Below, in pieces: positions 5,638 through 58,154 of a DNA stretch of 64,000 nucleotides (positions are counted from its first letter, which is position 1; each line of letters begins with the position of its first letter). The translations under genes and the position numbers were made by a program. The DNA lies in assembly GCA_002995645.1 (NCBI GenBank), contig PUHO01000006.1, positions 67,623 through 131,622 of the forward strand, read 5' to 3'. This DNA comes from SAR324 cluster bacterium (GTDB taxonomy: Bacteria; SAR324; XYD2-FULL-50-16; HCM1). The notes under the pieces were generated by a model. The model was not told the origin of the DNA and searched no databases. It saw only the letters and a program-made list of their open reading frames with translations.

Positions 5638-5640
5638 AGT

Positions 5641-5741
5641 AAGATAACCTGTCGTGCCTAGCTTAATAGGCAACAGCAAACAAGGCTTTAATCTTTGTTG
5701 GATTGCCACTCACAACACACGCCCCTTCCTTTGTTTCTTGC
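5641..5741 (-). pseudogene. Detached duplicate of the proS 3' end (22 nt downstream + stop + 76 nt of coding tail)
   Basis: 101 nt identical to 5775-5875 except one mismatch (GGATTGCC vs GGCTTGCC). It is not attached to any upstream ORF. Confidence 0.9.
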
Positions 5742-5769: not shown

Positions 5770-5796
5770 AAGATAAGATAACCTGTCGTGCCTAGC

Positions 5797-7233
5797 TTAA
5801 TAGGCAACAGCAAACAAGGCTTTAATCTTTGTTGGCTTGCCACTCACAACACACGCCCCTTCCTTTGTTTCTTGCGCCACAGGCAAACAACGAATAGTAG
5901 CTTTGGTTTCGTCTTGTATTTGATTAGCAACAGCAGAACTACCGTCCCAATAAGCATATACAAAACCACCTTGTTTAATATATTCTTTAAACTGCTCGTA
6001 GTTCTCAGCATAAAACGTATTTTCTTCTTGGAAAGTACGCGCTTTCTCAAATAAAGCGTTTTGTATATCTTCCAATAAATCCGGGATTTGCGTACCTAAT
6101 TCGTCTATAGGAATAAAATCTTTTTTACGCGTATCACGGCGAACAGCAACAACTATATTTTTTTCTATATCTTTAATACCAATCTCAATACGTAAAGGCG
6201 TACCTTGCTGTATCCATGTAAAAAAGCGATCGCCCGGGCTTAAATGAAATTGCGTATCTAGCTCCACTTTAAGGCTACCAAGTTGCTTTTTCAAAACAGA
6301 AACTACATTATCCGCATAAGCAAGTATCTGCTCTTTTTGTTCTTCTGATTTAACAATAGGAATAACAACAACCGGTCTCGGTGCTAAACGTGGTGGAATA
6401 ATAATACCGTCGTCATCGCCGTGAGTCATAATTAACCCACCAAGAATACGTGTACTCACGCCCCAACTTGTTGTATAAGCATATTGTAATTCATTGTTTT
6501 GATCTGAAAATTGAATCCCAAACGCTTTAGAAAAATTTTGTCCTAAATTATGGCTTGTTCCCATTTGCAAAGCTTTTTTATCTTGCATCAGCGCTTCTAC
6601 TGTATAAGTTGTATCAGCACCCGGAAACTTCTCATGTTCCGGTTTTGCACCGTCAATAACAGGAATAGCACAAACATTTTCTAAAAAATCTTTATATATG
6701 CCTAGCATTTTTTCCGTTTCCTCTTGTGCCTCTTGCGCATTAGCGTGCGCCGTATGCCCTTCTTGCCATAGAAATTCAGAAGTACGTAAAAATAACCTTG
6801 TACGTTTTTCCCAACGCATCACACTACACCACTGATTCATTAACATAGGCAAATCGCGGTAACTTTGTATCCATTGCGCATAGGCATAACCTATAATCGT
6901 TTCCGAACTAGGACGGATAACATATTTTTCTTCTAATTCTTTACCGCCGGCATAGGTAACCATAGCAAGCTCAGGAGCAAAACCTTCCACATGTTCCGCT
7001 TCTTTTGTAATAAACGACTCAGGAATTAACAAAGGAAAATAAGCATTGCGATGTCCTGTTTCTTTAAACTTTGTATCTAAGTAATTTTGCAACGACTCCC
7101 AAATGCTATAGCCGTTAGGCTGGATTATCATACATCCCTTAACCGGCGCATGGGTTGCCAATTTACCTACTTTAATAACGTCTTGATACCATTGAGGAAA
7201 ATTTTCTTTTCTTGGTGTAATGTTTTTTGCCAT
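5797..7233 (-). CDS. proS: Prolyl-tRNA synthetase (archaeal/eukaryote-like short form)
   Basis: 478-aa ORF. Class II ProRS signature SYRDLPMLMNQWCSVMRWE, anticodon-binding and C-terminal zinc-like domain, ends in AY as in this ProRS type. Confidence 0.92.
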   Translation of the reverse strand: MAKNITPRKENFPQWYQDVIKVGKLATHAPVKGCMIIQPNGYSIWESLQNYLDTKFKETGHRNAYFPLLIPESFITKEAEHVEGFAPELAMVTYAGGKELEEKYVIRPSSETIIGYAYAQWIQSYRDLPMLMNQWCSVMRWEKRTRLFLRTSEFLWQEGHTAHANAQEAQEETEKMLGIYKDFLENVCAIPVIDGAKPEHEKFPGADTTYTVEALMQDKKALQMGTSHNLGQNFSKAFGIQFSDQNNELQYAYTTSWGVSTRILGGLIMTHGDDDGIIIPPRLAPRPVVVIPIVKSEEQKEQILAYADNVVSVLKKQLGSLKVELDTQFHLSPGDRFFTWIQQGTPLRIEIGIKDIEKNIVVAVRRDTRKKDFIPIDELGTQIPDLLEDIQNALFEKARTFQEENTFYAENYEQFKEYIKQGGFVYAYWDGSSAVANQIQDETKATIRCLPVAQETKEGACVVSGKPTKIKALFAVAY

Positions 7234-24737: not shown

Positions 24738-26401
24738 TATTTCGTTTTTTATATCTATGGAAGATAGTTGTTTTATATAGCTTACTATGTATACTTACTA
24801 GCTGTTATCATGATTCTAATCTAGCAGATAAACTATTAGAAATAGAAGAAGTAGACAACTATTTTGCTGCCATTAACTTCACTCCAACAACAAACACGGC
24901 AGTCAAAGGCGTATATCTTCTTTCGCTACATGGCTCACAAGCGCTTGCACCTGTACTTGTCCCGGCAAGTAAAACTATTTTTCCCGTTTTTCCTATACGA
25001 ACTGAAGGGGATACTGTTTTTTCAGTATATAAACACTTTGATACGCCTTACCCCAATAACGAAGCTGTTTTTACGTTTGTTGCCCCGTTTCGTTCTAAAA
25101 ACTTACCGAACACTATAGCAGAAACAGGATTTATACATCCTATTCCCATTGTTAGCGCTACAACCTATCATTTTGATATAACAGGCCAAGCTGATCCCAC
25201 TCCAGACACCTATAAAGTAACTTATCTAGAAGACACAAATATCCCTAAAGACGCGATACAAATAAAACATCTTGCAAAAGACACGGAAACAATAACGTAT
25301 CACTTTAAAATGTATCCTAATAATGAGAAAGAATATTATCTAGCAGGATATAACTATCAACTGACTTCTAGTTTTGATATGTTTAAAACAGAAAAAATTA
25401 TCCGATCACGTATTTCAAACAATAGATTTGAACTCATTACAACAAGAACTAACTACAAAAACGGGATATTAGCCGATTTTCCACGTGAGTCTTTTGGGAC
25501 AAAGCCATATGGAAAAAATGGAACAGATAGCGCTCAAATCCTAGAAATTGTTAAAAACATTTCTACCCCTATAGACTCGACACAAAATACAAGCACAACA
25601 ACAACCTCCTATTATAACGGCGCTCTAACTATTGCTTTTCAAGAATTAGAAAAAGACGTATATTACAATACAAAGCTAAAACTACTTCAATCAAAAGAAG
25701 TCCATAGCTGGTCTTTTGACAAAACTTTCGCAGATATAAAATATAATTATTCATTACAAAAAACAGACTATGTCAACAATCCAAGTCAAGGGCTGTTTGG
25801 ATTACCGGCACATACCGTTCAATTTACGTTTGTATCCGGCTTAGCTACACGTAATTGGGAAAAGTTATATACATATAATACATGGGGATTGCCTAAAACC
25901 ATACAGACGAAAGACACAACCGGCACAGTCACAGAAACAGAAGAGTTTACCTATGATGCAAAAAATCGCTTAACTAAGCAAGAAACAATAGATAATAAAT
26001 TAAATCAGTGTAAAGATCAAAGTGAAAAAATAGAAAACGTATATACAGATATAGAAGAGAACCTAGACTCTATCACAGAAAAAAAGTTTATTTGTAACAC
26101 CGGGACCTATACGTTAACTTCGCAAAAAACAACGCATTATAGTACGGATCTCCAACCTACCGATATTATTACCTATGATGTTTCAACAACTCCGGCAGAA
26201 GCTACGCAAGAAACGATTATTTCCTATTCTTATTATAAACAAAAAAAGCAAGAACAGTTTTTAGAGTTGCCTTCCAAAAAAGAATTATATAGAGTTCTCT
26301 ATAGCTATGATGCTAATCATTTTTTTATTAGCGCGATTACAGTGGATCCCGATAATAATTTAACAAAAGGCTATGATCATAGTAGTTATGAATATAAATA
26401 A
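24725..26401 (+). CDS. Hypothetical lipoprotein with YD-repeat-like motifs
   Basis: 558-aa ORF. Lipobox LTSC. T/N/Y-rich beta-type sequence. FTYDAKNRLTKQE and YSYDANHFF resemble YD/RHS repeat cores. Confidence 0.55.
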   Translation: MASLIFRFLYLWKIVVLYSLLCILTSCYHDSNLADKLLEIEEVDNYFAAINFTPTTNTAVKGVYLLSLHGSQALAPVLVPASKTIFPVFPIRTEGDTVFSVYKHFDTPYPNNEAVFTFVAPFRSKNLPNTIAETGFIHPIPIVSATTYHFDITGQADPTPDTYKVTYLEDTNIPKDAIQIKHLAKDTETITYHFKMYPNNEKEYYLAGYNYQLTSSFDMFKTEKIIRSRISNNRFELITTRTNYKNGILADFPRESFGTKPYGKNGTDSAQILEIVKNISTPIDSTQNTSTTTTSYYNGALTIAFQELEKDVYYNTKLKLLQSKEVHSWSFDKTFADIKYNYSLQKTDYVNNPSQGLFGLPAHTVQFTFVSGLATRNWEKLYTYNTWGLPKTIQTKDTTGTVTETEEFTYDAKNRLTKQETIDNKLNQCKDQSEKIENVYTDIEENLDSITEKKFICNTGTYTLTSQKTTHYSTDLQPTDIITYDVSTTPAEATQETIISYSYYKQKKQEQFLELPSKKELYRVLYSYDANHFFISAITVDPDNNLTKGYDHSSYEYK

Positions 26402-27074
26402 TTTTCTTACTTCCTCTTTTTCTTTGCCCGGTTGGTGCTTACATTGTCAAAAATACCTTTATAAATCTTACGGTTTACCAATTTGTATTAGTTGTTATAA
26501 ACGCATTGTATTTTGGGATAAAGCACTTTGTCCTTTATGTAATCATTTCCATCCTTATTTAGCTTGTGAAAACTCTACTACCCCTTATTTAAGCCAAGTA
26601 TATGTTATTTGCCGCTATAATGAAATCTTGCATTCGCTTGTTACTAGCTTGAAATATAAAAAGAACTTACTTTCTAAAACTATTCTTGGGTTATTATTAT
26701 CCCATTATATGCGAAACAACCAACAAGAATGGCACCAGTTTGAAGGTATGATCCCTATTCCTATTAATAAACAAAGATTACGTACAAGAGGATTTAATCA
26801 AACTCATGTACTAGCATTAGCTCAATCTTATTTACCTATTTTATCTAATATATTAATTAAAACAAAATACCATGCGCACCAAGCCGGACTTTCCCAAGAA
26901 GAGCGATCGCGCAATATTATCCGTTCTTTTACAATAAAAAAATCCCTTCCACCTAAAAAATATCTTCTTTTAGACGACGTTTTCACAACAGGGAATACTT
27001 TAAATGAAGCGGCACGTATTTTATTAGAAGCCGGCGCTAAGGAAGTATGCGCTATTACACTTGCACATACGTAA
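26373..27074 (+). CDS. comF: ComF-family phosphoribosyltransferase-like competence protein
   Basis: 233-aa ORF. N-terminal CxxC pairs (CLHCQ, CISCYK, CPLCN), C-terminal PRTase motif LLLDDVFTTGNT. The start may be ATG 26388. Confidence 0.85.
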   Translation: MIIVVMNINNFLTSSFSLPGWCLHCQKYLYKSYGLPICISCYKRIVFWDKALCPLCNHFHPYLACENSTTPYLSQVYVICRYNEILHSLVTSLKYKKNLLSKTILGLLLSHYMRNNQQEWHQFEGMIPIPINKQRLRTRGFNQTHVLALAQSYLPILSNILIKTKYHAHQAGLSQEERSRNIIRSFTIKKSLPPKKYLLLDDVFTTGNTLNEAARILLEAGAKEVCAITLAHT

Positions 27075-27075
27075 C

Positions 27076-28002
27076 AAAAATAATGCTATTAAGTTAGATA
27101 CTTAATGTTTACTATCTTTTGAAAAAAGTTTGTCACCAATCAGCATAATCGGCACTTTTGTCATCATGTATACAAAGCACAAAATAAACAAACTTAACAT
27201 GACAAGACTAATAGCAAAATCATATAAAACTAAAATAATGCTATTAAGTTAGATACTTAATGTTTACTATCTTTTGAAAAAAGTTTGTCACCAATCGGCA
27301 TAATCGGCACTTTTGTCATCATGTATACAAAACACAAAATAAACAAACTTAACATGACAAGAGTAATAGCAAAATCATATAAAACTAAAATAATGCTATT
27401 AAGTTAGATACTTAATGTTTACTATCTTTTGAAAAAAGTTTGTCATCAATCGGCATAATCGGTACTTTTGTCATCATGTATACAATGCACAAAATAAACA
27501 AACTTAACATGACAAGAGTAATAGCAAAATCATATAAAACGAAAATAATGCTATTAAGTTAGATACTTAATGTTTACTATCTGTTGAAAAAAGTTTGTCA
27601 TCAATCGGCATAATCGCTACTTTTGTCATCATGTATACAAAACACAAAATAAACAAACTTAACATGACAAGACTAATAGCAAAATCATATAAAACAAAAA
27701 TAATGCTATTAAGTTAGATACTTAATCTTTACTATCTTTTGAAAAAAGTTTGTCACCAATCGGCATAATCGCTACTTTTGTCATCATGTATACAAAACAC
27801 AAAATAAACAAACTTAACATGACAAGACTAATAGCAAAATCATATAAAACTAAAATAATGCTATTAAGTTAGATACTTAATGTTTACTATCTTTTGAAAA
27901 AAGTTTGTCACCAATCGGCATAATAGGTACTTTTGTCATCATGTATACAAAACACAAAATAAACAAACTTAACATGCCAAGAGTAATAGCAAAATCATAT
28001 AA
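27076..28002 (-). repeat. Six tandem 155-bp units: five detached copies plus the functional copy of the actF 3' end with its downstream spacer
   Basis: The marker TAATGCTATT recurs at 27081, 27236, 27391, 27546, 27701 and 27856 (period exactly 155). Each unit is 27 nt of spacer, a stop codon and about 125 nt of actF coding tail. Only a few substitutions per unit and no indels. Confidence 0.95.
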
Positions 28003-29166
28003 GTTGAAAGAAAAACCAATAATTGCTTTATGCCCTATACCTAATGCCGCTTGATTTTCCTGTATAGACGGAACAACAAGCAAGTATTTCTCTAACCACA
28101 TACCAATAATAATGATAATGGCAATAATACGAGAAAACCAAACAGATTGGCTTGTCGTACGGCTAAGTAAACCAAAAAAAGGAATAACAACAACAGTCCC
28201 TGCAACAATCCAAAATACAATACGCCATTCATAAGAAAGCATACGTAAAGCGAGATACGGCGTTTCTTCCGGTAAGTTCGCATACCATATAGTAAGGATT
28301 TGCGCGAAAATAACATAGGTCCATAAAAGGCAACTAGCAAAACTTAGTTTAGACATATCGTGATATCGTTTTGTACTAATATATTCAGATAAGTTTTGCG
28401 TTTTTTTAAGGATACCGGCAATTAACATTAAAGAAGCAAAAGCAACCACAAGACCGGACACCGCATATTCAACGCCAAACATAGTACTAAACCAAGCTTG
28501 ATCTATAGACATAATCCAATCAAAAGCAATGAGACTAGTCAATAAACCGTACATAATAGCACATATAGGAGCTAAACGTCTCATTTTACAATAACTACGT
28601 TGCGTTTCATCGCTTTGTTCGCCATAAGAGCAGCTAAGAAGTTTCATAAACCAACTACGTTTCTCTGGAGCCACTAAACCGGCGTCCGCCCTAAGGCTAT
28701 AATATAAATAAGCAAAAGCAAAACCTAATAAAACAAGGTAAGTTATAATATTACGTTTTACAAAGAAAGAAAAATGAAGCCAACCTTGCTTTGCGGCAAT
28801 AACACGAGCTGGATATATCCATTCAAAGAAATGGCTTGCCCCAAAAAACAAGACAATAAACAAGACAAAACTAACCGGAGCAAAAGCAAACAAGCCTTCT
28901 GCCATACGTTTCACCGGTCTAGCCCAAACGGCAGAGGTAATAGTAAAAATTACAGACAAAGCTAAACCGCCAAGTGCCACGCTAGTAAAAAATAAATTAT
29001 TCACAAGTAAAATTTGCCATACGTCTTGCGCATGTGCCCCACTTTTACCAACGCAAAACATAACCACGCCAAAAGCAATGAATAACCATAGAACATGATA
29101 CAACCATTTAGGCGGACGTATTTGCACCTGTTTTTGTAGTATCTGCATATCTTCTTGTCGTATCAT
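27877..29166 (-). CDS. actF: Alternative complex III subunit ActF (NrfD-like membrane subunit 2)
   Basis: 429-aa polytopic membrane ORF, last gene of the actABCDEF-ordered operon, paralogous in character to ActC. Confidence 0.8.
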   Translation of the reverse strand: MIRQEDMQILQKQVQIRPPKWLYHVLWLFIAFGVVMFCVGKSGAHAQDVWQILLVNNLFFTSVALGGLALSVIFTITSAVWARPVKRMAEGLFAFAPVSFVLFIVLFFGASHFFEWIYPARVIAAKQGWLHFSFFVKRNIITYLVLLGFAFAYLYYSLRADAGLVAPEKRSWFMKLLSCSYGEQSDETQRSYCKMRRLAPICAIMYGLLTSLIAFDWIMSIDQAWFSTMFGVEYAVSGLVVAFASLMLIAGILKKTQNLSEYISTKRYHDMSKLSFASCLLWTYVIFAQILTIWYANLPEETPYLALRMLSYEWRIVFWIVAGTVVVIPFFGLLSRTTSQSVWFSRIIAIIIIIGMWLEKYLLVVPSIQENQAALGIGHKAIIGFSFNLYDFAITLGMLSLFILCFVYMMTKVPIMPIGDKLFSKDSKH

Positions 29167-35385: not shown

Positions 35386-35697
35386 AGATTTTTTATAAAA
35401 ATAATAAAGAACGTGTCTTTTTATTTCTAACAAACCGGCAATATAAAATCAAGTTTTAAATGCCCCTTGTTCTAGTATATCTTTAATTTATTTATTTAAA
35501 ATTGTTCTTGCATTTATAGTACTTATTATGTTTATAATTGTTTTTAATAACTATGAAACATATATTTAATTTATAGTTATTTAAAAAAAAGTTTGACTTT
35601 ATATTTCTATTATTATATTTTGTAGGCATGTTTATATTATATAAAAGTTTTATAAGCTACACTTGATAAATTTAAAGAATATCAAATGGCACGCTTT

Positions 35698-37160: not shown

Positions 37161-39626
37161 CTTCTCGTAACCGCTTTATAATCCCGCACTACTTCAGTTA
37201 AAAACGAGGTATCGCAAACCGGCTTCTTGTACTCCCTCCGCAAGCATTTCTCTAGTCGCTTATCTTGCAAGTTATATTACCCTCTCGCAAACACTGCTTA
37301 AAACAATAATAAAGGCGTGCCCTTCCTTCGTTTAGAGTTATAACCCACTCTCATACGAACACTACTTTAAGCAAGGAAGAGAACCACAATGCAAGCCGTC
37401 TTCTTTTACGCCCTCCGCAAGCTCTTCTCTACTCGCTTATCTTGTAAGTTATATTACTCTCTCGCAAACACTGCTTTAATCCCTAATGCTATCACTATAT
37501 AAACTTACTCTATAACCTCGCCTATAAGAGATTGCAGGTTAGTACTATTTTACTTCTTTGTTTTGATGTGGAAGAGGGGAAGCTTTATTTATATCATCAC
37601 TATATAAAGCTATGCTGGAAGTTTAGTTGCCTAGTTTCAGGCTTTGCAAAAGAAAGATCATTCATAATGCAAGCCGGCTTCTTTTATAAGCCCCCTGCAA
37701 TCTCTTTTCTACTCGCTTATCTTGCAAGTTATATTACTTTCTCGCAAATGCTTTTTCAATCAAGACGTTCACGCTTGCCAGCTTTACTTGCGTCCAATCT
37801 CCACACAAGCACTGCTTTAATCTCTATCGCTAGCACTATATAAACTTACTCTATAACCCTGCCTATAAGAGATTGAAGGTTAGTACTATTTTACTTCTTG
37901 CTTTTGATGTGGAAGAGAGGAAGCTTTATTTATATCATCACTATATAAAGCTATGATTGCCTAGTTTCAGGCGTTGCAAGAGGAAGATAACCGCAAGCCG
38001 GCTTCTTTTACGCCCTCCGCAAACTCGTCTCTACTCGCTTATCTTGCAAGTTATATTACTCCCTCGCAAATGCTTCTCTAGTCGCTTATCTTGTCAGTTA
38101 TATTACTCTCTCGCAAATGCTTTTTCAGTCAAGGCGTTCACGTTTGCCAGCTTTACTTGCGTCCAATCTCCACACAAGCACTATATAAACTTACTCTATA
38201 ATCTCGCCTATAAGAGATTGCAGGTTAGTACTATTTTACTTCTTTGTTTTGATATGGAAGAGGGGAAGCTTTATTTATATCATCACTCTATAAAGCTATG
38301 ATTGCATATTTTCAGGCGTTGCAAAAGGAAGAGAACCGCAATGCAAGCCGGCTTTTTTACGCCCCCTGCAATCTCTTTTCTACTCGCTTATCTTGCAAGT
38401 TATATTACTCTCTCGCAAGCTCTTTTCTAGCCGCTTATCTTGTAAGTTATATTACTCTCTCGCAAGCTCTTTTCTACTCGCTTATCTTGTAAATTATATT
38501 ACTCTATCGCAAATGCTTTTTCAGTCAAGGCGTTCACGTTTGCCAGCTTTACTTGCGTCTAATCTCCCACACTCAAGCACTGCTTTAATCCCTAATGCTA
38601 TCACTATATAAACTTACTCTATAACCTCGCCTATAATAGATTGAAGGTTAGTACTATTTTACTTCTTTGTTTTGATATGGAAGAAGGGAAGCTTTATTTA
38701 TATCATCACTATATAAAGCTATGCTAGAAGTTTGCTTGCCTAGTTTCAGGCTTTGCAAAAGGAAGAGAACCGCAATGCAAGCCGGCTTCTTTTATAAGCC
38801 CCCCCGCAAACTCTTCTCTAATCGCTTATCTTGCAAGTTATATTACTCTCTCGCAAGCACTGCTTTAATCTCTAGCACTATATAAACTTACTCTATAACC
38901 CCGCCTATAAGAAATTGAAGGTTAGTACTATTTTACTTCTTGCTTTTGATGTGGAAGAGGGGAAGCTTTATTTATATCATCATAAAGCTATGCTGGTAGT
39001 TTGCTTGCCTAGTTTCAAGCGTTGCAAAAGGAAGAGCATTCATAATGCAAGCCGGCTTTTTTACGCCCTCCGCAAGCACTTCTCTACTCGCTTATCTTGC
39101 AAGCTATATTACTCTCTCGCAAACTCTTCTCTAGTCGCTTATCTTGTAAGTTATATTACTCTCTCGCAAGCACTGCTTTAATCCCTAATGCTAGCACTAT
39201 ATAAACTTACTCTATAACCCCGCCTATAATAGATTGCAGGTTAGTACTATTTTACTTCTTTGTTTTGATGTGGAAAAGGGGAAGCTTCATTTATATCATC
39301 ACTATATAAAGCTATGCTGGTAGTTTGGTTGCCTAGTTTCAGGCTTTGCAAAAGAGAGAGCATCGCAAGCCGGCTTCTTTTACGCCCTCCGCAAGCTCTT
39401 CTCTAGTCGCTTATCTTGCAAGTTATATTACTTTCTCGCAAGCACTGCTTTAATCTCTAGCGCTATCAGTATATAAACTTACTCTATAACCTCGTCTATA
39501 AGAGATTGCAGGTTAGTACTATTTTACTTCTTGGTTTTGATATGGAAGAGGGGAAGCTTTATTTATATCATCACTATATAAAGCTATGCTAGGAATTTGG
39601 TTGCCTAGTTTCAGGCGTTGCAAAAA
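37161..39626. repeat. Roughly 2.5-kb hierarchical (higher-order) non-coding tandem repeat array
   Basis: Seven units whose A module (CTTACTCTATAAC...) starts at 37504, 37845, 38190, 38613, 38887, 39206 and 39478, preceded by a degenerate leader (37161-37503). Unit length varies (341, 345, 423, 274, 319, 272 bp) through 1-3 copies of a 47-bp sub-repeat and an optional module of about 61 bp. Confidence 0.95.
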
Positions 39627-39653
39627 AATCTTTACTTCTTTGAAGAAACAAAG
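39622..39653 (-). terminator. Rho-independent terminator of the tRNA-Lys/tRNA-Glu operon
   Basis: On the minus strand: CTTTGTTTC-TTCAAA-GAAGTAAAG (9-bp stem with two G-U pairs) followed by ATTTTTTT. It lies about 75 nt downstream of tRNA-Glu. Confidence 0.65.
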
Positions 39654-39726
39654 CTTATAACATAGTAAAATACTACGTAGTAATTGCAAAATAATAAAAT
39701 GTACGTGGAATGAGCAAGAAAAATTG

Positions 39727-48716: not shown

Positions 48717-50189
48717 TTATATTTGCAAAGAAGGAGTCGCTACTTGCTTATGTTGTTCAAAAAAGTGCGCTATTTGAAATAAAGTTTCTTCTTGCAAAAA
48801 GTTAGCTTGAAACTGAATCCCAACAGGAAGCGACTCTTTAGAAAGTCCGGCAGGAAGAGAGATCGCGGGAATGCTTGCTAAGTTAGCAGGAATAGTAAAC
48901 ACATCTTGTAAAAAATAAAACAAAGGATCGTCTGTTTTGTAGTTAAGATCAAACGGCGCGCTTGGAGCAGTTGGGCAAACAATAACGTCTACTTGTTTGA
49001 AAATGGCAGCATATTGGCTACGAAGTAAATTTTGCACTTGTAAAGCTTTATTATAATACGCATCATAGTAACCGGACGATAAAACGTAAGTCCCTAATAA
49101 AATACGCATCTTGACTTCTTTACCAAATCCATGTTCCCTTGATAATTCGTAAATCGATTCTAAAGTCTCTGCTTCTTGTGCACGGCTACCATAATGTACG
49201 CCGTCATATCGCCCTAGATTAGAGCTACACTCTGCCGGAGCTATAATATAATAAGCCGCTAAAGATTGTTTAATATTAGGAACGGAAACTTCCACAAACT
49301 CGCACCCTGATTCTTTCAAAAAAGCAAGGCTTTCGTCATATACGGCACGTATATCACTTGGCAGTTCATAAGCTGCTTGTTCTTTAATAATACCAACTTT
49401 AAGCCCTTTAATTGACTTATGTAACGCCGATTTATAAGAAGGCACAGGTACTTTCAAGCTTGTAGCGTCTTTAGGATCAAATCCGGCAATAGCTTCTAAC
49501 AATAAAGCCGCATCTTCTACGTCCCTTGTCATAGGTCCGGCTTGGTCAAGAGAGCTAGCAAACGCCGTCATACCCCATCGGCTTACCCGTCCGTACGTTG
49601 GTTTTAAGCCAACAATATGATTAAACGAAGCCGGTTGACGAATAGATCCGCCTGTATCCGTACCAATCGCACCAACTGATAAACCGGCAGAAACGGCAAC
49701 GGCAGAACCGCCAGACGATCCGCCCGGAACTTTAGTTAAATCATAGGGATTTTTAACAGGAAAAAAAGAAGAATTTTCATTACTTGACCCCATGGCAAAT
49801 TCGTCCATATTGGTTTTGCCAATCATCATATAAGAAGCTTCTTGCAACTTTGTTGTTACTGTTGAGTCATATGGCGCAACATAATTTTTTAACATTTGTG
49901 AAGCACATGTTGTCGGCGTTCCTTTAATGTTAAAAAGATCTTTAATAGCTAGCGGCATGCCTTCTAGTTCGCCCACAGCATCGCCTTGCATAATTTTTTT
50001 ATCTACTGCCTTAGCTTGGTTTAAAACTTCTTCTTCTTTTGCTAAATATAGATAGACGCCTAGTTCTTTATTAGTATCTTTAATACGTTGTAAAACGGCT
50101 TGTACTATTTCTTCTGTTGTAATTTCTTTGGCAAGTCGTTTTTGATGCAGTTCGTGAATAGGAGTAAAAGCTAAGCTCATAATAGACAT
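48717..50189 (-). CDS. gatA: Glutamyl/aspartyl-tRNA amidotransferase subunit A
   Basis: 490-aa ORF. Amidase signature GGSSGGSAVAVSAG...GTDTGGSIRQPASF. Confidence 0.95.
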   Translation of the reverse strand: MSIMSLAFTPIHELHQKRLAKEITTEEIVQAVLQRIKDTNKELGVYLYLAKEEEVLNQAKAVDKKIMQGDAVGELEGMPLAIKDLFNIKGTPTTCASQMLKNYVAPYDSTVTTKLQEASYMMIGKTNMDEFAMGSSNENSSFFPVKNPYDLTKVPGGSSGGSAVAVSAGLSVGAIGTDTGGSIRQPASFNHIVGLKPTYGRVSRWGMTAFASSLDQAGPMTRDVEDAALLLEAIAGFDPKDATSLKVPVPSYKSALHKSIKGLKVGIIKEQAAYELPSDIRAVYDESLAFLKESGCEFVEVSVPNIKQSLAAYYIIAPAECSSNLGRYDGVHYGSRAQEAETLESIYELSREHGFGKEVKMRILLGTYVLSSGYYDAYYNKALQVQNLLRSQYAAIFKQVDVIVCPTAPSAPFDLNYKTDDPLFYFLQDVFTIPANLASIPAISLPAGLSKESLPVGIQFQANFLQEETLFQIAHFFEQHKQVATPSLQI

Positions 50190-50228
50190 TAAAATAATAG
50201 TTTAAAATTGTATCTTCTAATAATTTTA

Positions 50229-50257
50229 ATTATAGCAATATTTCCTTGTTGTAACAA
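50229..50257 (-). promoter_or_regulatory. Candidate gatA promoter
   Basis: On the minus strand: TTGTTA, 17-nt spacer, TATAAT, ending 39 nt upstream of the gatA ATG. It lies just beyond the comM-tail repeats. Confidence 0.5.
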
Positions 50258-50280
50258 GAATATTTTTAGCTATTTTCTTT

Positions 50281-50815
50281 TTAGATCTTTAGCGATTGGT
50301 CTAGATTCCTATATGGCAACGCTTCGGCAAGGTGTTCTGTTTGTATTGATTCGCTATTTTCCAGATCGGCAATCGTACGACTCACCTTCAAAATACTATC
50401 GTACCCCCCGTCCGCTTAGCTTAAGTTTACTAACTGCTAATTGCAAAAGGGCTTCGCTTTGCTTATCTAACTTATTATAGTTTTGATTTTATTTCTTACA
50501 ATTAGAATTCTAGCGCTCTGTCTAGGTTCCTATATTGCAATGCTTCGGCAAGGTGCTCTGTTTGTATTGATTCGCTATTTTCCAGATCGGCAATTGTACG
50601 ACTCACTTTCAAAATACTATCGTACCCCCGTCCGCTTAGCTTAAGCTTACTAACTGCTAATTGCAAAAGGGATTCGCTTTGTTTATTTAGCTTGTTTTGA
50701 TTTTATTTGTTACAATTAGAATTCTAACGCTCTGTCCAGATTCCTATATTACAACGCTTCGGCAAGGTGCTTTGCTTTGTTTATCTAGTTTGTTATGATT
50801 TTGAATTTGTTACAA
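50281..50815 (-). pseudogene. Three detached tandem copies (one internally deleted) of the comM 3' end
   Basis: Copies of the stop-codon region TTAGAATTCTA... start at 50281 (most diverged), 50502 and 50716 (about 115 nt internally deleted). The functional copy starts at 50816. Each full unit is about 215 bp: 6 nt downstream plus about 210 nt of coding tail. Confidence 0.9.
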
Positions 50816-52354
50816 TTAGAATTCTAACGATCTGTCTAGATTCCTATATTGCAATGCTTCGGCAAGGTGTTCTGTTTGTATCGCTTCGCTATTTTCTAAA
50901 TCGGCAATCGTACGACTCACTTTCAAAATACTATCGTACCCCCGTCCGCTTAGCTTAAGCTTACTAACTGCTAATTGCAAAAGTGATTCGCTTTGTTTAT
51001 CTAGCTTGCAATAGTTTTGAATTTGCTTCGCTTTTAACAATCCGTTACGAAGCGTTTCATTTTGATATCTATCTTTTTGTTTTTGGCTAGCTTGGATTAC
51101 TTTCTCTTTCATCTGCTTACTAGAAGTAAACGAGGTTGTTGCTTGCCTTGCATCGGTTGAAATCACAGGCACTTCAATTTGCAAATCAATTCTATCTAGT
51201 AACGGACCGGATAAACGACTACGATACCGCGTGATTTGAGTCACACTGCAACGGCATTCATGATCGGCATCACCTAAATAACCACAAGGGCAAGGATTGG
51301 TGGCGGCTATTAATTGAAAATCAGCAGGGAACACAAAACTATCTTTTGCTCGTGTAATTGTAATTTGTTTATCCTCTAGCGGTTGCCTTAGCAAGTCTAA
51401 TGTAGCGCGCGAATATTCAGCTAATTCATCAAGAAATAAAACGCCATGATGTGCTAATGAAACTTCGCCAGCTCGTGGCGTACTTCCCCCTCCAACTAAG
51501 CCGGCACCGGAAACAGAATGGTGCGGCGTACGAAAAGGGCGTGTAATACGTTGTAAATCTTCTGTGGTAAATCCGTAATATAAAGAATAAATTTTTGCGA
51601 CTTGCAGTATTTCATCATAAGAAAGAGGTGACAAAATCGAAGGAAACCTACTAGCTAGCATAGATTTGCCCGATCCCGGTGGTCCTATTAATAAAATATG
51701 ATGTCTTCCTGCTGCTGCAATTTCTAAAGCGCGTTTTGCCTGTATATGCCCTTTAACATCGGCATAATCAAGCTCATTAGTGTGTCCTAGATTCTGTTTC
51801 AGGACGTCCTGTAAAGTGTCCTGGTATGATTCCAATACTTTTTCTTCTGTGTAAAAATCGATAATATCCTTAAGCGTATCAGCTATATAGATATCCATTT
51901 CCGGGACTATTGCCGCAACAGGTGCGTTCTCTCTAGGAAGGATACAAGTTTTTATGCCCTGTTTTTTTGCCTCCATTAACATAGCTAATATCCCGGCAAC
52001 AGGACGTATTCTACCTTGTAAAGAAAGCTCCCCAACTAAGAGCGTATTCTCTCCGCTTGTTGCAGGTAATCGTTTATCCGCTTTCAGAATTGCAATCGCT
52101 ATTGGCAAATCAAATCCGGTTCCGCCTTTACTTAATCCGGCAGGGGCAAGGTTCACCACAACGCGGCGAATAGGGAATCCGCCGGCTACATTAGACAGGC
52201 TTGCTGTTACACGCTCTCTACTTTCGCGAATAGCATGATCTGGCAAACCTACAATTTGAAACGCCCCTAAGCCAATAGAAACGTCAGCTTCCACTTCTAT
52301 AATATGAGCCTCAATTCCTATAACGGTTGCTGTATAGGTTATTATCTCGCTCAT
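50816..52354 (-). CDS. comM: Mg-chelatase-like AAA+ protein ComM/YifB
   Basis: 512-aa ORF. N-terminal Lon-protease-like domain, Walker A GPPGSGKSM, Walker B VLFLDEL, zinc-like CPCGYLGDADHECRC insertion. Confidence 0.93.
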   Translation of the reverse strand: MSEIITYTATVIGIEAHIIEVEADVSIGLGAFQIVGLPDHAIRESRERVTASLSNVAGGFPIRRVVVNLAPAGLSKGGTGFDLPIAIAILKADKRLPATSGENTLLVGELSLQGRIRPVAGILAMLMEAKKQGIKTCILPRENAPVAAIVPEMDIYIADTLKDIIDFYTEEKVLESYQDTLQDVLKQNLGHTNELDYADVKGHIQAKRALEIAAAGRHHILLIGPPGSGKSMLASRFPSILSPLSYDEILQVAKIYSLYYGFTTEDLQRITRPFRTPHHSVSGAGLVGGGSTPRAGEVSLAHHGVLFLDELAEYSRATLDLLRQPLEDKQITITRAKDSFVFPADFQLIAATNPCPCGYLGDADHECRCSVTQITRYRSRLSGPLLDRIDLQIEVPVISTDARQATTSFTSSKQMKEKVIQASQKQKDRYQNETLRNGLLKAKQIQNYCKLDKQSESLLQLAVSKLKLSGRGYDSILKVSRTIADLENSEAIQTEHLAEALQYRNLDRSLEF

Positions 52355-54870: not shown

Positions 54871-56364
54871 ATGCTAATTTCTTGCCAAAACTGTAGTTCT
54901 CAATATGAAATTGATGAAAATAAAATTACAGAACCTAATTCTTTTATTCGCTGCAAAGCTTGTAAAGAGCCTATTTTCCTGCATCGGACACAAAATTCCT
55001 TGCAAATTAGCGATACTCCGCAGACTTTGATTCTCTGCCCAACTTGTGAAACTACGTATTCTTTATCGGCAGATGTTTTTACAGATGAGGGACCTACGCA
55101 AACAAAATGCTATAAATGTAAGTCACTTTTTAATAGTTACGCTTCTGGAAATACGGAAATACTAGACAAGGGAGAACAAGATTCGTCAACTGACAACAAA
55201 GATAATATAAACTTAGAGACAGCAGGTAACGAAGAGCAAGAAGAAACTAATGCTATAGACGATCAATTTGATTCTATTTTAACAGAATCTTTAGATATTG
55301 ATAGTGATGATCGTTCTAATCTTTTTCTTTCAACCGATGAAGAGACAAACAAAAATAACCAAGAAAATCAAGACACTACAAAAAACTTATTTTCTACTCA
55401 GGAAGAAAATTTAAACCAAGATATAGAAAACAATTTATTTTCTACCGATTCAGAAGAAGTCGATTTAAATGAGGAAGATAGCCTATTCTCTCCTCAAGAA
55501 GGCGATTCAAATCAAAATATAGAAACCGATTTATTTTCTACTGATTCAGAAATACTTTCTTTAGATAATACAGATACCTCGCTCTCTGATGATACAATAA
55601 AAATCACTCCCGACTCTACGGAAGAAGATTTATTTGCAGCTAATATAACAACTCCAAACCAAGATAAAAACAATATCTCCTCTAAAGGTATTATAGAAGA
55701 CGACCTATTTGATAATGAAACAGTTGCTGAGACACTAGATAAAGACTCGCCTTTTACTCAAAAAGACGAACGCTCATCAATAAAGCAAGAAGAAAATCCT
55801 GCCATAACAAAGCAAGCTGGCAAAAGAAGTAACCATGCAACTTTAAAAATAGTTGCCGCTGCTTGTATAATATGTCTTCTTGTTGGGACTACCTATTTCT
55901 GGTACTTTGCTCATCAAAGAGCACAAGTAGCTAGCACATCTAAAAACATAGTTTCCCAAATTCAAAATAAAATTTGGAAAAGACCTATTTCAATTTCGAA
56001 TCCATTGAAAGGAAAATATATTTTTAACAATAAAGAACAAAAATATATATTTATTATGGAAGGCAAGTTAAGGAATGAGACGAATAATCCAATCCATTTT
56101 GCGCATATTACGCTAAGCGCTAGAATCTACAATAAAAGTAACGAACTGTTATCTTCTAATATAAGCTATGCTGGAAAAAATCTTACTATAAAGCAAATTA
56201 CTAATAATAAGTTGCAAAAATTACAAAACTTCTTAAATCAAGATCCAGGCAAAGAAATTGATATTCCCGCTCATGGGCAAATTAATTTTCAAGCTTTATT
56301 CCCTAGACCTTCCACACGCATTTACGCTATGGAAGCGCATGTTGTTGCTTTCAAAAAAATCTAG
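54871..56364 (+). CDS. MJ0042-type double zinc-ribbon membrane protein with acidic LF-repeat linker and DUF3426-like C-terminus
   Basis: 497-aa ORF. Two zinc ribbons (C5/C8/C28/C31 and C56/C59/C80/C83), acidic low-complexity region with seven [NSD]LF motifs (aa 149-281), TM helix (aa 325-346), C-terminal beta-rich domain. Confidence 0.7.
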   Translation: MLISCQNCSSQYEIDENKITEPNSFIRCKACKEPIFLHRTQNSLQISDTPQTLILCPTCETTYSLSADVFTDEGPTQTKCYKCKSLFNSYASGNTEILDKGEQDSSTDNKDNINLETAGNEEQEETNAIDDQFDSILTESLDIDSDDRSNLFLSTDEETNKNNQENQDTTKNLFSTQEENLNQDIENNLFSTDSEEVDLNEEDSLFSPQEGDSNQNIETDLFSTDSEILSLDNTDTSLSDDTIKITPDSTEEDLFAANITTPNQDKNNISSKGIIEDDLFDNETVAETLDKDSPFTQKDERSSIKQEENPAITKQAGKRSNHATLKIVAAACIICLLVGTTYFWYFAHQRAQVASTSKNIVSQIQNKIWKRPISISNPLKGKYIFNNKEQKYIFIMEGKLRNETNNPIHFAHITLSARIYNKSNELLSSNISYAGKNLTIKQITNNKLQKLQNFLNQDPGKEIDIPAHGQINFQALFPRPSTRIYAMEAHVVAFKKI

Positions 56365-56384: not shown

Positions 56385-58154
56385 TTATAACGTAGCTGTC
56401 GTTTTGTAGTTTGCTTCTTTTTTTCTTTCTTCTATCCTATCCGTAATATTAGCATCTATAAATTGTTTTGAAATACTTTGTAGAAACTTATGTAATACAG
56501 ACGAAATAGAATGTAACGTATACTTTTGCTCTTTAATTGTAGTAACGTCTACCTCTATAAGCAAGCCTTCTTGTAGATGATATGGATTAGTTAAACTAGA
56601 AAAATGTAAAAACTGCTCTTCAAGATAATTAATACGCTTTTCTATAATCATTCTTTCTTTTGGGAATTGATCTTTATAACACTCTTCTACTTTAGAGTCC
56701 ATAAACTTAATATACGATTTAATACGATCAAAAAAAGTATAGCTTTTCTCAGCACTATTATTAGTTGAAAAAACCTGTAATTCATGCCAAAGAATATCTT
56801 TATAAGTATCTTCTTCCCCTTCTTGAGTACCGGTAATCTCGCGAGCAATATCAAAATAAGATAAAGTTCGTTTTGTATCTCTATGTTGATTGTACACTTC
56901 TAAAATAACACGCAAAGTGCTTTCAATTTGTTCTTCTAGTTGTTTAGCTTGCTTATCCCACGTAGTACGAAGTTCTTTTAATTGTTTATTATTATAGTAT
57001 ATCAATCGCATACCAAAATTTTCGTCCGGTTGATCTTCCGGTGCTAATTTAGTATACTCTCGCAAAACACATTCTCTTGCATTCTTTAAATTATTAACGA
57101 ACTGGCAACCTAATTGCGCTTCATCTAGTAAAGAAAGAATATTATTAACAATATGGTCAAAACCAATATATTGCAAACGAGAATCTTCTATAAGATTACG
57201 AATATTTGCAACCGGTGAGTTATGATCTATTATTCCCTCATTAGGAACGTCTTCTAAGTAATCAATAAACTTTTTTGCTAATCGACTATAACGAGGACTA
57301 TCTTCAGATTGGATATCTGTATCATCGCCAAGATACTCATCTAATTGTTTAATATGTTCAAAGACATACCTAGAAGAAGACAAGCCGTCCATGCCGTCTT
57401 CTTTAAGAGATTGACTAAGTTGATCAATACAACTTTCAATATTAAGACAAATATCTTCAGCTAATATTTTTTTCAAAAACTCAGACAGTGTTTCTTGATA
57501 GTGATAAAGTGGCAATAATAAATCAGTATTTAAAATATTAAAAGCAAGTTTAATATCTAAAACAGTCGCCGGTTTTTTACGATTACTTTTAAAAGAACAC
57601 TTAATCATTTTATAAGCGTTATTATCTGCAATAAAGGCACCGGCACCGTCTTTTTGTATTAAAGAAGACGAAGTTGCATCGGCAAAATTTTGTAAAGATC
57701 GATTAATATAAGCTTGTAAATTTTGGTAAACATGCGTGAATGATTTCTCTATTTTACCAGTATGAAAAGTGTCTTCTTTACCAAGTTGATTTAAAATATC
57801 AGAAATAAACGTAGGCATATACGTAAGTGCATTTTTGGACTCTTCCGTACTAATTAAGCGATTATATTTTTTAAGCAATTCATCTTCTGTCGTAGTTAAA
57901 TAACGACCTAACATGTTTTGTAAACCTTGATTGTAGTAGTTATGCAATAAAGATTTAACATTACTTTTAACTTGTAACTCAGATAATACTTCTTGCGGAA
58001 GCTTTGCTTCAATGTGGTTTAAAATACGATCAACTTGTTCGTCAATTAATAATTGACTTTCAGCATACTCGTCTCTATCTTTACGCAATATACTATTACG
58101 GCTACCAATAGTTCCCGGATCACTGGGATGAATATAGTTATTATTATTTTCCAT
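56385..58154 (-). CDS. Hypothetical cytoplasmic protein
   Basis: 589-aa ORF. No TM segment or signal peptide, helical and acidic. No family recognised. Confidence 0.55.
   Translation of the reverse strand: MENNNNYIHPSDPGTIGSRNSILRKDRDEYAESQLLIDEQVDRILNHIEAKLPQEVLSELQVKSNVKSLLHNYYNQGLQNMLGRYLTTTEDELLKKYNRLISTEESKNALTYMPTFISDILNQLGKEDTFHTGKIEKSFTHVYQNLQAYINRSLQNFADATSSSLIQKDGAGAFIADNNAYKMIKCSFKSNRKKPATVLDIKLAFNILNTDLLLPLYHYQETLSEFLKKILAEDICLNIESCIDQLSQSLKEDGMDGLSSSRYVFEHIKQLDEYLGDDTDIQSEDSPRYSRLAKKFIDYLEDVPNEGIIDHNSPVANIRNLIEDSRLQYIGFDHIVNNILSLLDEAQLGCQFVNNLKNARECVLREYTKLAPEDQPDENFGMRLIYYNNKQLKELRTTWDKQAKQLEEQIESTLRVILEVYNQHRDTKRTLSYFDIAREITGTQEGEEDTYKDILWHELQVFSTNNSAEKSYTFFDRIKSYIKFMDSKVEECYKDQFPKERMIIEKRINYLEEQFLHFSSLTNPYHLQEGLLIEVDVTTIKEQKYTLHSISSVLHKFLQSISKQFIDANITDRIEERKKEANYKTTATL

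Follow-up and report, generated by a model that had tools for sequence, protein, structure and literature searches.

Tandem copies of the comM 3′ end in the comM-gatA spacer of a SAR324 cluster bacterium: probable relics of duplication and unequal exchange

We describe a tandem array of partial gene copies in a 64,000-nucleotide stretch of DNA (hereafter, the window) from a SAR324 cluster bacterium (assembly GCA_002995645.1, contig PUHO01000006.1, forward-strand positions 67,623 to 131,622), in which the last 69 codons of comM, its stop codon and 6 nt of downstream sequence recur head-to-tail behind the gene, adding 2.5 extra copies before gatA. We consider it probable that these units are relics of comM's own 3′ end, generated by one duplication followed by unequal exchange or slippage, and that they are functionless. 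This reading draws on direct observation of the anatomy of the array, its homology to comM, the junction shared by its units, the intact parent gene, further arrays in the same window and a synonymous bias in the differences among copies. Relic gene-end arrays are known in kind, and what is new is their occurrence in a lineage where none had been noted; on present evidence they do not constitute a new molecular system.

Anatomy of the array

The parent gene, the four repeat units (U0 to U3, numbered from comM towards gatA) and the downstream gene are arranged as follows:

50816..52354, minus strand: comM (yifB), encoding a 512-aa YifB/ComM Mg-chelatase-like AAA ATPase (TIGR00368, E = 2.6e-178)
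50810-51025, minus strand: U0, the functional copy, 216 nt made up of 69 codons, the TAA stop codon (50818..50816) and TTGTAA
50710-50809, minus strand: U1, a short copy of 100 nt, with the first 36 nt of the unit joined to its last ~64 nt
50496-50709, minus strand: U2, a full copy of 214 nt, 94.8% identical to U0, with 64 codons and the stop codon in an open frame
50281-50495, minus strand: U3, the most distal copy, 89.2% identical to U0, with its own TAA (50283..50281)
48717..50189, minus strand: gatA, downstream of comM and co-directional with it (TIGR00132, E = 1.1e-175)

The parent gene is intact, and in an alignment with 10 homologues the C-terminus of ComM coincides with the natural end of the family (...LDRSLEF and stop, against ...LDRELNF and stop). 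The original prediction, made from inspection of the sequence without database searches, had placed copies of the comM tail at these positions with stop-codon motifs spaced 221, 214 and 100 nt apart, and a repeat search recovered both the copies and the spacings. Its figure of 3.5 copies between comM and gatA holds if the functional tail is counted, the spacer itself containing 2.5 extra units. The proposed homology of the copies to the comM tail was borne out by self-BLAST, with E-values of 7.7e-68 (50281-50495 versus 50816-51029), 1.6e-82 and 3.9e-89 that therefore exclude chance similarity, and the translation of U2 still matches the Pfam family Mg_chelatase_C (PF13335) with an E-value of 1.3e-17. 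The co-directional orientation reported for gatA also stands, both genes being encoded on the minus strand.

The copies differ in their state of preservation. U2 departs from U0 by 11 substitutions, in keeping with the dozen or so counted previously, and by indels confined to the A-rich first ~25 nt of the unit. U3, which was aligned over 50275-50495 and hence with 6 nt beyond its stop codon, carries 23 substitutions with respect to U0 and is 91.4% identical to U2; divergence is greater over its last ~25 nt, and its frame is broken, as had been noted, by a change in the length of a C-run on the plus strand that amounts to one additional G on the minus strand (GGGGGG, against GGGGG in the other copies). 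U1 lacks the middle 116 nt of the unit and a CAA to TAA change gives it an in-frame stop codon; Tandem Repeats Finder reads 50676-50869, a segment that covers the U1 region, as two repeats with a period of 100 nt. An internal deletion, as originally proposed for this third copy, accounts for the missing segment, but a secondary 100-nt re-duplication across the U0/U2 junction describes U1 equally well, and the two routes cannot be told apart because they yield the same product.

The extra copies belong to no gene. There is no complete gene upstream of U2, whose sole open reading frame (ORF) starts at a TTG codon inside the unit (50666..50502), and the two antisense ORFs found in the array (50208..50480 and 50767..50958, both on the plus strand) have no family match. 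Stop-codon read-through from comM into the copies was considered and ruled out: a second in-frame TAA lies two codons beyond the comM stop codon, and read-through would therefore add nothing to ComM. Without the extra copies, ~91 nt would separate the stop codon of comM from the start codon of gatA; the spacer now measures 626 nt, most of which consists of copies of the comM end.

Junctions and proposed history

All three junctions between units have the sequence TAATTGTAA(C/G)AAAT in common. Because independent duplications would have given different junctions, the shared junction points to a single founding duplication, followed by amplification through homologous unequal exchange or slippage. 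From these data we infer a history in which slippage and unequal exchange are the mechanisms at work. The founding step would have been one illegitimate duplication of ~216 bp, comprising 69 codons, the stop codon and a few nucleotides, that created the new junction stop-TTGTAA/CAAAT; it would have been tolerated because the unit carries a stop codon, comM thus being kept whole by the first copy. Once copies existed, homologous unequal exchange between them, or slippage during replication, would have brought the array to 3.5 units. The 100-nt short unit may have arisen in the same process, either through re-duplication across a junction or through loss of the DNA between short repeats of the AAACAAAG/CAAACAGA type. 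The copies would have stayed protein-like, with mostly synonymous differences, through ongoing exchange with the functional tail.

Some trace of such exchange may be preserved at the end of the units. Within the last 45 nt, three informative sites support three mutually incompatible groupings (U0+U2/U1+U3, U0+U3/U1+U2 and U0+U1/U2+U3), a pattern that points to exchange among copies, or else to homoplasy or recurrent mutation. A search for a further partial unit after U3 detected no significant similarity between the flank and the start of the unit (P = 0.48-0.93), which places the end of the array at the U3 stop codon.

Synonymous bias among the copies

Substitutions were evaluated on a 192-nt core that U0, U2 and U3 have in common, and the resulting statistics rest on the 23 substitutions that this core contains. 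Second codon positions account for only two of them and synonymous changes for fifteen, when a simulation using the observed transition:transversion ratio expects 6.9 synonymous changes (P = 0.0003). The excess persists among changes private to U2 or U3 (10 synonymous, 7 non-synonymous; P = 0.011). Nei-Gojobori estimates of the synonymous rate (dS) and of the ratio of non-synonymous to synonymous rates (dN/dS) are 0.23 and 0.09 for U0-U2, 0.36 and 0.13 for U0-U3, and 0.27 and 0.19 for U2-U3, both of which are relic copies. The copies of the actF tail, which form another array in the window, look neutral, with 3/5/3 variable columns at codon positions 1/2/3 and a dN/dS of ~0.5. The comM array had been described as more diverged than the actF units and thus as an older expansion of the same kind, and the order of divergence agrees with this, with identities of 89-95% at comM, 95-96% at actF and 99% at a third locus, proS. 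The strong synonymous bias, however, is not what simple decay of an old expansion would leave.

This bias heads the observations that weigh against reading the array as functionless relics. Free decay after separation from a selected tail predicts a dN/dS of at least 0.5 on any copy-to-copy path, and the observed values range from 0.09 to 0.19, although with 11-17 differences the shortfall below 0.5 is marginal (P ~0.07-0.3, by our own estimate). In addition, the founding junction gave no evidence of microhomology, local alignments there being no better than those of shuffled sequences (P = 0.48-0.93), and the copy number, the read-through and the lack of function are all read from the sequence of a single genome. 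We regard continued two-way exchange with the functional tail as the likeliest cause of the bias; other possible causes are an origin of the copies as tails of diverged strains' alleles, the mixing of strains in metagenome assembly and real selection.

Selection would imply that the copies are retained because they are used, either as promoterless cassettes from which recombination could repair or substitute the comM 3′ end or, in the case of U2, as the source of a free ~54-aa peptide corresponding to the C-terminal 'lid' of ComM. The synonymous excess in both of the above tests fits this proposal, as do the low dN/dS between the two relics U2 and U3, the open frame of U2 with its strong Mg_chelatase_C match and the lack of synonymous bias in the actF array. 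The units themselves are poorly suited to such roles, since U1 has acquired a stop codon and lost half of its length, U3 is frameshifted, and the U2 ORF starts at TTG with no recognisable translation signal before it. The copies encode nearly the same protein and therefore have no diversity to donate, and ComM is a cytoplasmic AAA+ ATPase, not a surface antigen. Exchange with the functional tail, moreover, explains a bias computed on so few substitutions without invoking function, and has a precedent in a bacterial partial gene duplicate (PMC9937504). Use of the copies hence appears unlikely to us. A more elaborate version of the proposal, in which purifying selection keeps the relic tails as recombination templates that swap, repair or, through U3, switch off the 3′ end of comM, or maintains the U2 lid peptide, within a lineage where a hairpin-at-stop-codon mechanism spawns gene tails, is in our judgement no less doubtful.

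The copies might instead be the tails of comM alleles from diverged strains, incorporated into an existing duplication by inter-strain recombination or threaded together during the assembly of a mixed-strain metagenome. Differences among the copies do resemble those expected between functional alleles, both in dN/dS (0.09-0.19) and in dS (0.23-0.36), and the protein is recorded on one 141-kb contig only, with no related genome to serve as a check. Even so, the three junction variants and the odd short unit require at least a real tandem duplication, and the same window has arrays of other ages and unit lengths. The longest exact run common to any two comM copies is 74 nt, each junction carries its own sequence variant and U1 is structurally different from the other units; collapse, expansion or invention of copies by the assembler is unlikely for these reasons, and the array would thus seem unlikely to be an assembly artefact. 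We consider an origin in diverged strains rather unlikely; if it were true, the copy number and order seen in the contig would match no single cell.

Expression signals in the spacer

Downstream of the array, the gene order continues after gatA with pheS and pheT. Two further features of the locus bear on a possible role in expression:

50257..50229, minus strand: gatA promoter-like site, TTGTTA-17-TGnTATAAT, matching 10/12 consensus positions and preceded by TG
50816..50827, minus strand: 12-nt perfect palindrome TTAGAATTCTAA, which takes in the stop codon of comM and has a second copy in U1 (50716-50727)

The palindrome recurs in U2 as CTAGAATTCTAA (50502-50513). The promoter-like site lies in unique sequence, 23 nt past the end of the array, so that the array does stop short of the candidate gatA promoter (50229-50257) as the original prediction had it. 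The match itself is no better than chance. Three promoter-like sites were found in this AT-rich region, where shuffled sequences lead one to expect 4.1, and the site remains only a candidate because such matches are no commoner here than chance allows. The U2/U3 junction creates another promoter-like sequence towards gatA (TTGTAA-16-TATAAT; 50501..50474, minus strand), which matches 10/12 positions and is not above chance expectation either. No terminator-like sites were detected in 49900-51300, against 1.1 expected, and read-through of comM transcripts across the copies into gatA is therefore probable.

A functional RNA or regulatory array, whether acting as multiple terminators, as a structured 3′ untranslated region or as a set of promoters feeding gatA, could make use of the promoter-like sequence at the U2/U3 junction and of the palindrome at each stop codon. 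The counts just given speak against promoters and terminators alike. Rfam returned no family in the array at E <= 1, its one match being at chance level and in the unique flank, and the folding energy is ordinary both for U2 (z = -1.3) and for the whole spacer (z = -0.8). We give a regulatory role of this kind hardly any credence, and a structured cis-regulatory RNA or terminator array was rejected as a candidate, there being no Rfam match, no unusual folding and no terminator-like hairpins followed by a T-run.

Other arrays in the window

The comM array is one of four array loci in the window, the others being at proS, at actF and in a complex array. A parallel analysis of ~130 kb of loci from other organisms, the nearest relatives of ComM among them, found no repeat with a period of at least 40. 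The actF array (27073-28002) consists of six tandem 155-nt copies that are 95-96% identical, each unit comprising 41 codons, the stop codon and 29 nt from the last gene of the Alternative Complex III (ACIII) operon (27877..29166, minus strand), and it abuts the stop codon of the convergent gene comF (26373..27074). The tail of proS is present as a 102-nt duplicate, 99% identical, at 5640-5741 and 5774-5875, with a 134-nt spacing. The proS stop codon sits in the loop of a TGCCTA/TAGGCA hairpin, and a fragment 'aaatacgagttaagtag' is met again another ~100 nt downstream, suggesting that a larger duplication later lost part of its length to a deletion.

The three tail arrays, at comM, actF and proS, share two features. 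The unit contains the stop codon in every case, as expected if only duplications that preserve the gene survive, and a perfect 6-7-bp palindrome spans the stop codon in all three of the genes concerned (5797..7233, 27877..29166 and 50816..52354). Perfect palindromes of at least 6 bp in this position occur in 10 of the 46 genes of the window overall, yielding a hypergeometric P of ~0.008 for what is a post hoc comparison on three array genes. The palindrome may act as a trigger of slippage and fits hairpin-promoted slippage; slipped-strand mispairing is known to be set off by hairpins, as has been proposed for the variable-number tandem repeats (VNTRs) of Wolbachia (PMC3287509).

The recurrence of this architecture also bears on an origin of the copies in mobile elements. 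In some bacteria comM is an insertion target, and elements that integrate into its 3′ end and bring a replacement tail would leave duplicated attachment (att) sites behind; replacement tails carried by elements would be expected to differ mainly at synonymous sites. The comM copies, however, abut without intervening DNA and share one common junction, their neighbours match no integrase, transposase or reverse-transcriptase family, and nothing similar was found among phage or plasmid records. The same architecture, moreover, appears at actF and proS as nearly identical local copies. An origin as att remnants is highly improbable and already close to refuted.

The fourth locus is a complex nested array of 2.4 kb (37200-39660), with units of 272-345 nt that contain 47-nt sub-repeats, located between a gene resembling an outer membrane protein (OMP) and the genes for tRNA-Glu and tRNA-Lys. 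It lacks a long ORF, matches nothing in Rfam and does not resemble the genes on either side. Two more repeats were observed in the window. An imperfect 52-nt palindrome (77%; 35538-35589) occupies the divergent intergenic region between the start of the ACIII operon and the OMP-like gene, and a 96-nt direct repeat (73% identical; 55388-55587) lies inside a zinc-ribbon ORF (54871..56364), where it is probably an in-frame protein repeat of 32 aa.

Organism and nearest relatives

The nearest relatives of both SecA (63-64% identity, or 66% for one partial sequence) and ComM (53-56% identity) are found in SAR324/Lambdaproteobacteria metagenome-assembled genomes (MAGs). No ComM closer than 56% was found in the protein collections searched, and a scan of genome contigs with ComM retrieved only relatives at or below 48% identity. 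The unit core had no match in an exact-match scan of Joint Genome Institute (JGI) metagenome contigs, and the two best long relative contigs showed neither comM-gatA synteny nor tail copies. The window has a G+C content of ~35% and encodes IlvB, IlvC, ACIII and CopA, a repertoire that includes branched-chain amino-acid synthesis; the organism is therefore not an obviously reduced symbiont. A 589-aa protein (56385..58154, minus strand) scores 454 bits, against a cutoff of 500, with the NCBIfam model of CfpA, a cytoplasmic filament protein. CfpA is characteristic of spirochaetes, and despite this match the housekeeping proteins are nearest to those of SAR324/Lambdaproteobacteria MAGs.

Discussion

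Rather than a new device, the comM array is most likely a harmless consequence of slippage and unequal exchange of DNA; as far as its sequence allows us to infer, it is tolerated without a function of its own. The closest known parallel is the tandem-repeat genome of Ehrlichia ruminantium. Many pseudogenes of that species are reportedly truncated gene fragments tied to repeats. Tandem repeats in its non-coding DNA are described as actively expanding and contracting (PMC10710844), and slipped-strand mispairing is proposed as their source (PMC3287509). The likeness consists in the presence, within one genome, of many long-period (~100-300 bp) non-coding tandem repeats that stretch the spacers between genes. 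Several traits of the E. ruminantium type were found here: the copies abut and share one junction, they are fragments of an adjacent gene, that gene is intact and several loci are affected. Variability in copy number is the defining observation for the E. ruminantium repeats, whereas the comM array is known from a single sequence. The two organisms also differ widely, E. ruminantium being an intracellular pathogen of the Rickettsiales and the present organism a SAR324-like bacterium endowed with branched-chain amino-acid synthesis and Alternative Complex III, with high coding density outside the arrays of the window.

A second parallel from E. ruminantium concerns the exchange that we propose between the copies and the functional tail. 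A partial duplicate of ntrX exchanges sequence with its parent gene in this species, and two-way conversion has been proposed as perhaps slowing its degeneration (PMC9937504). Like the comM copies, it is a non-expressed partial copy near its parent with site patterns that are incongruent with a simple tree (PMC9937504). The ntrX duplicate is inverted, lies 2 kb off and derives from a 5′-proximal segment, whereas the comM copies are direct, abutting and derived from the 3′ end; exchange at comM is suggested by three sites in one genome, and not by strain comparison as for ntrX. By the same authors' account, a frameshift of the ntrX duplicate was copied into the gene (PMC9937504), and the extra G of U3 could inactivate comM by exchange in the same manner.

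Other systems resemble the array in part. The VNTR loci of Wolbachia are likewise long-period intergenic repeats, with internal deletions, palindromes proposed as slippage triggers and concerted evolution, but their periods are not described as copies of the coding 3′ end of an adjacent gene (PMC3287509). A diversity-generating retroelement was considered and rejected: among the neighbours, which comprise gatA, pheS, pheT and a pair of ORFs without significant family match, none matched a reverse-transcriptase family. The adenine pattern of such elements is also absent, since among the 11 differences between U0 and U2 the A lies in U2 at three and in U0 at three, and the rest involve G, C or T. 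In silent-cassette systems, such as Neisseria pilE/pilS, Borrelia vlsE and Anaplasma msp2, promoterless, 5′-truncated copies of the 3′ part of a gene lie in tandem beside the expressed gene. The architecture is alike, but silent cassettes code for diversified versions of a surface antigen, and the comM copies differ by nearly synonymous changes (15/23; dN/dS 0.09-0.19) and correspond to a cytoplasmic ATPase.

These results have practical consequences. In genome annotation, tail copies of this kind should not be called genes or pseudogene 'paralogues', and in assembly quality control the arrays mark spots where the copy number may be wrong. The finding is also useful for studying how bacterial spacers grow. 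For the lineage itself, the array shows that an unusual tendency, the tandem duplication of the ends of genes into the DNA between them, is not confined to E. ruminantium, the obligate intracellular species where it is best known, but also occurs in an unrelated and metabolically fuller SAR324-like bacterium. The relic copies, finally, look protein-constrained, and if this proves true in more genomes, partial duplicates may be shielded from decay, or made dangerous to their parent gene, by continued exchange with it.

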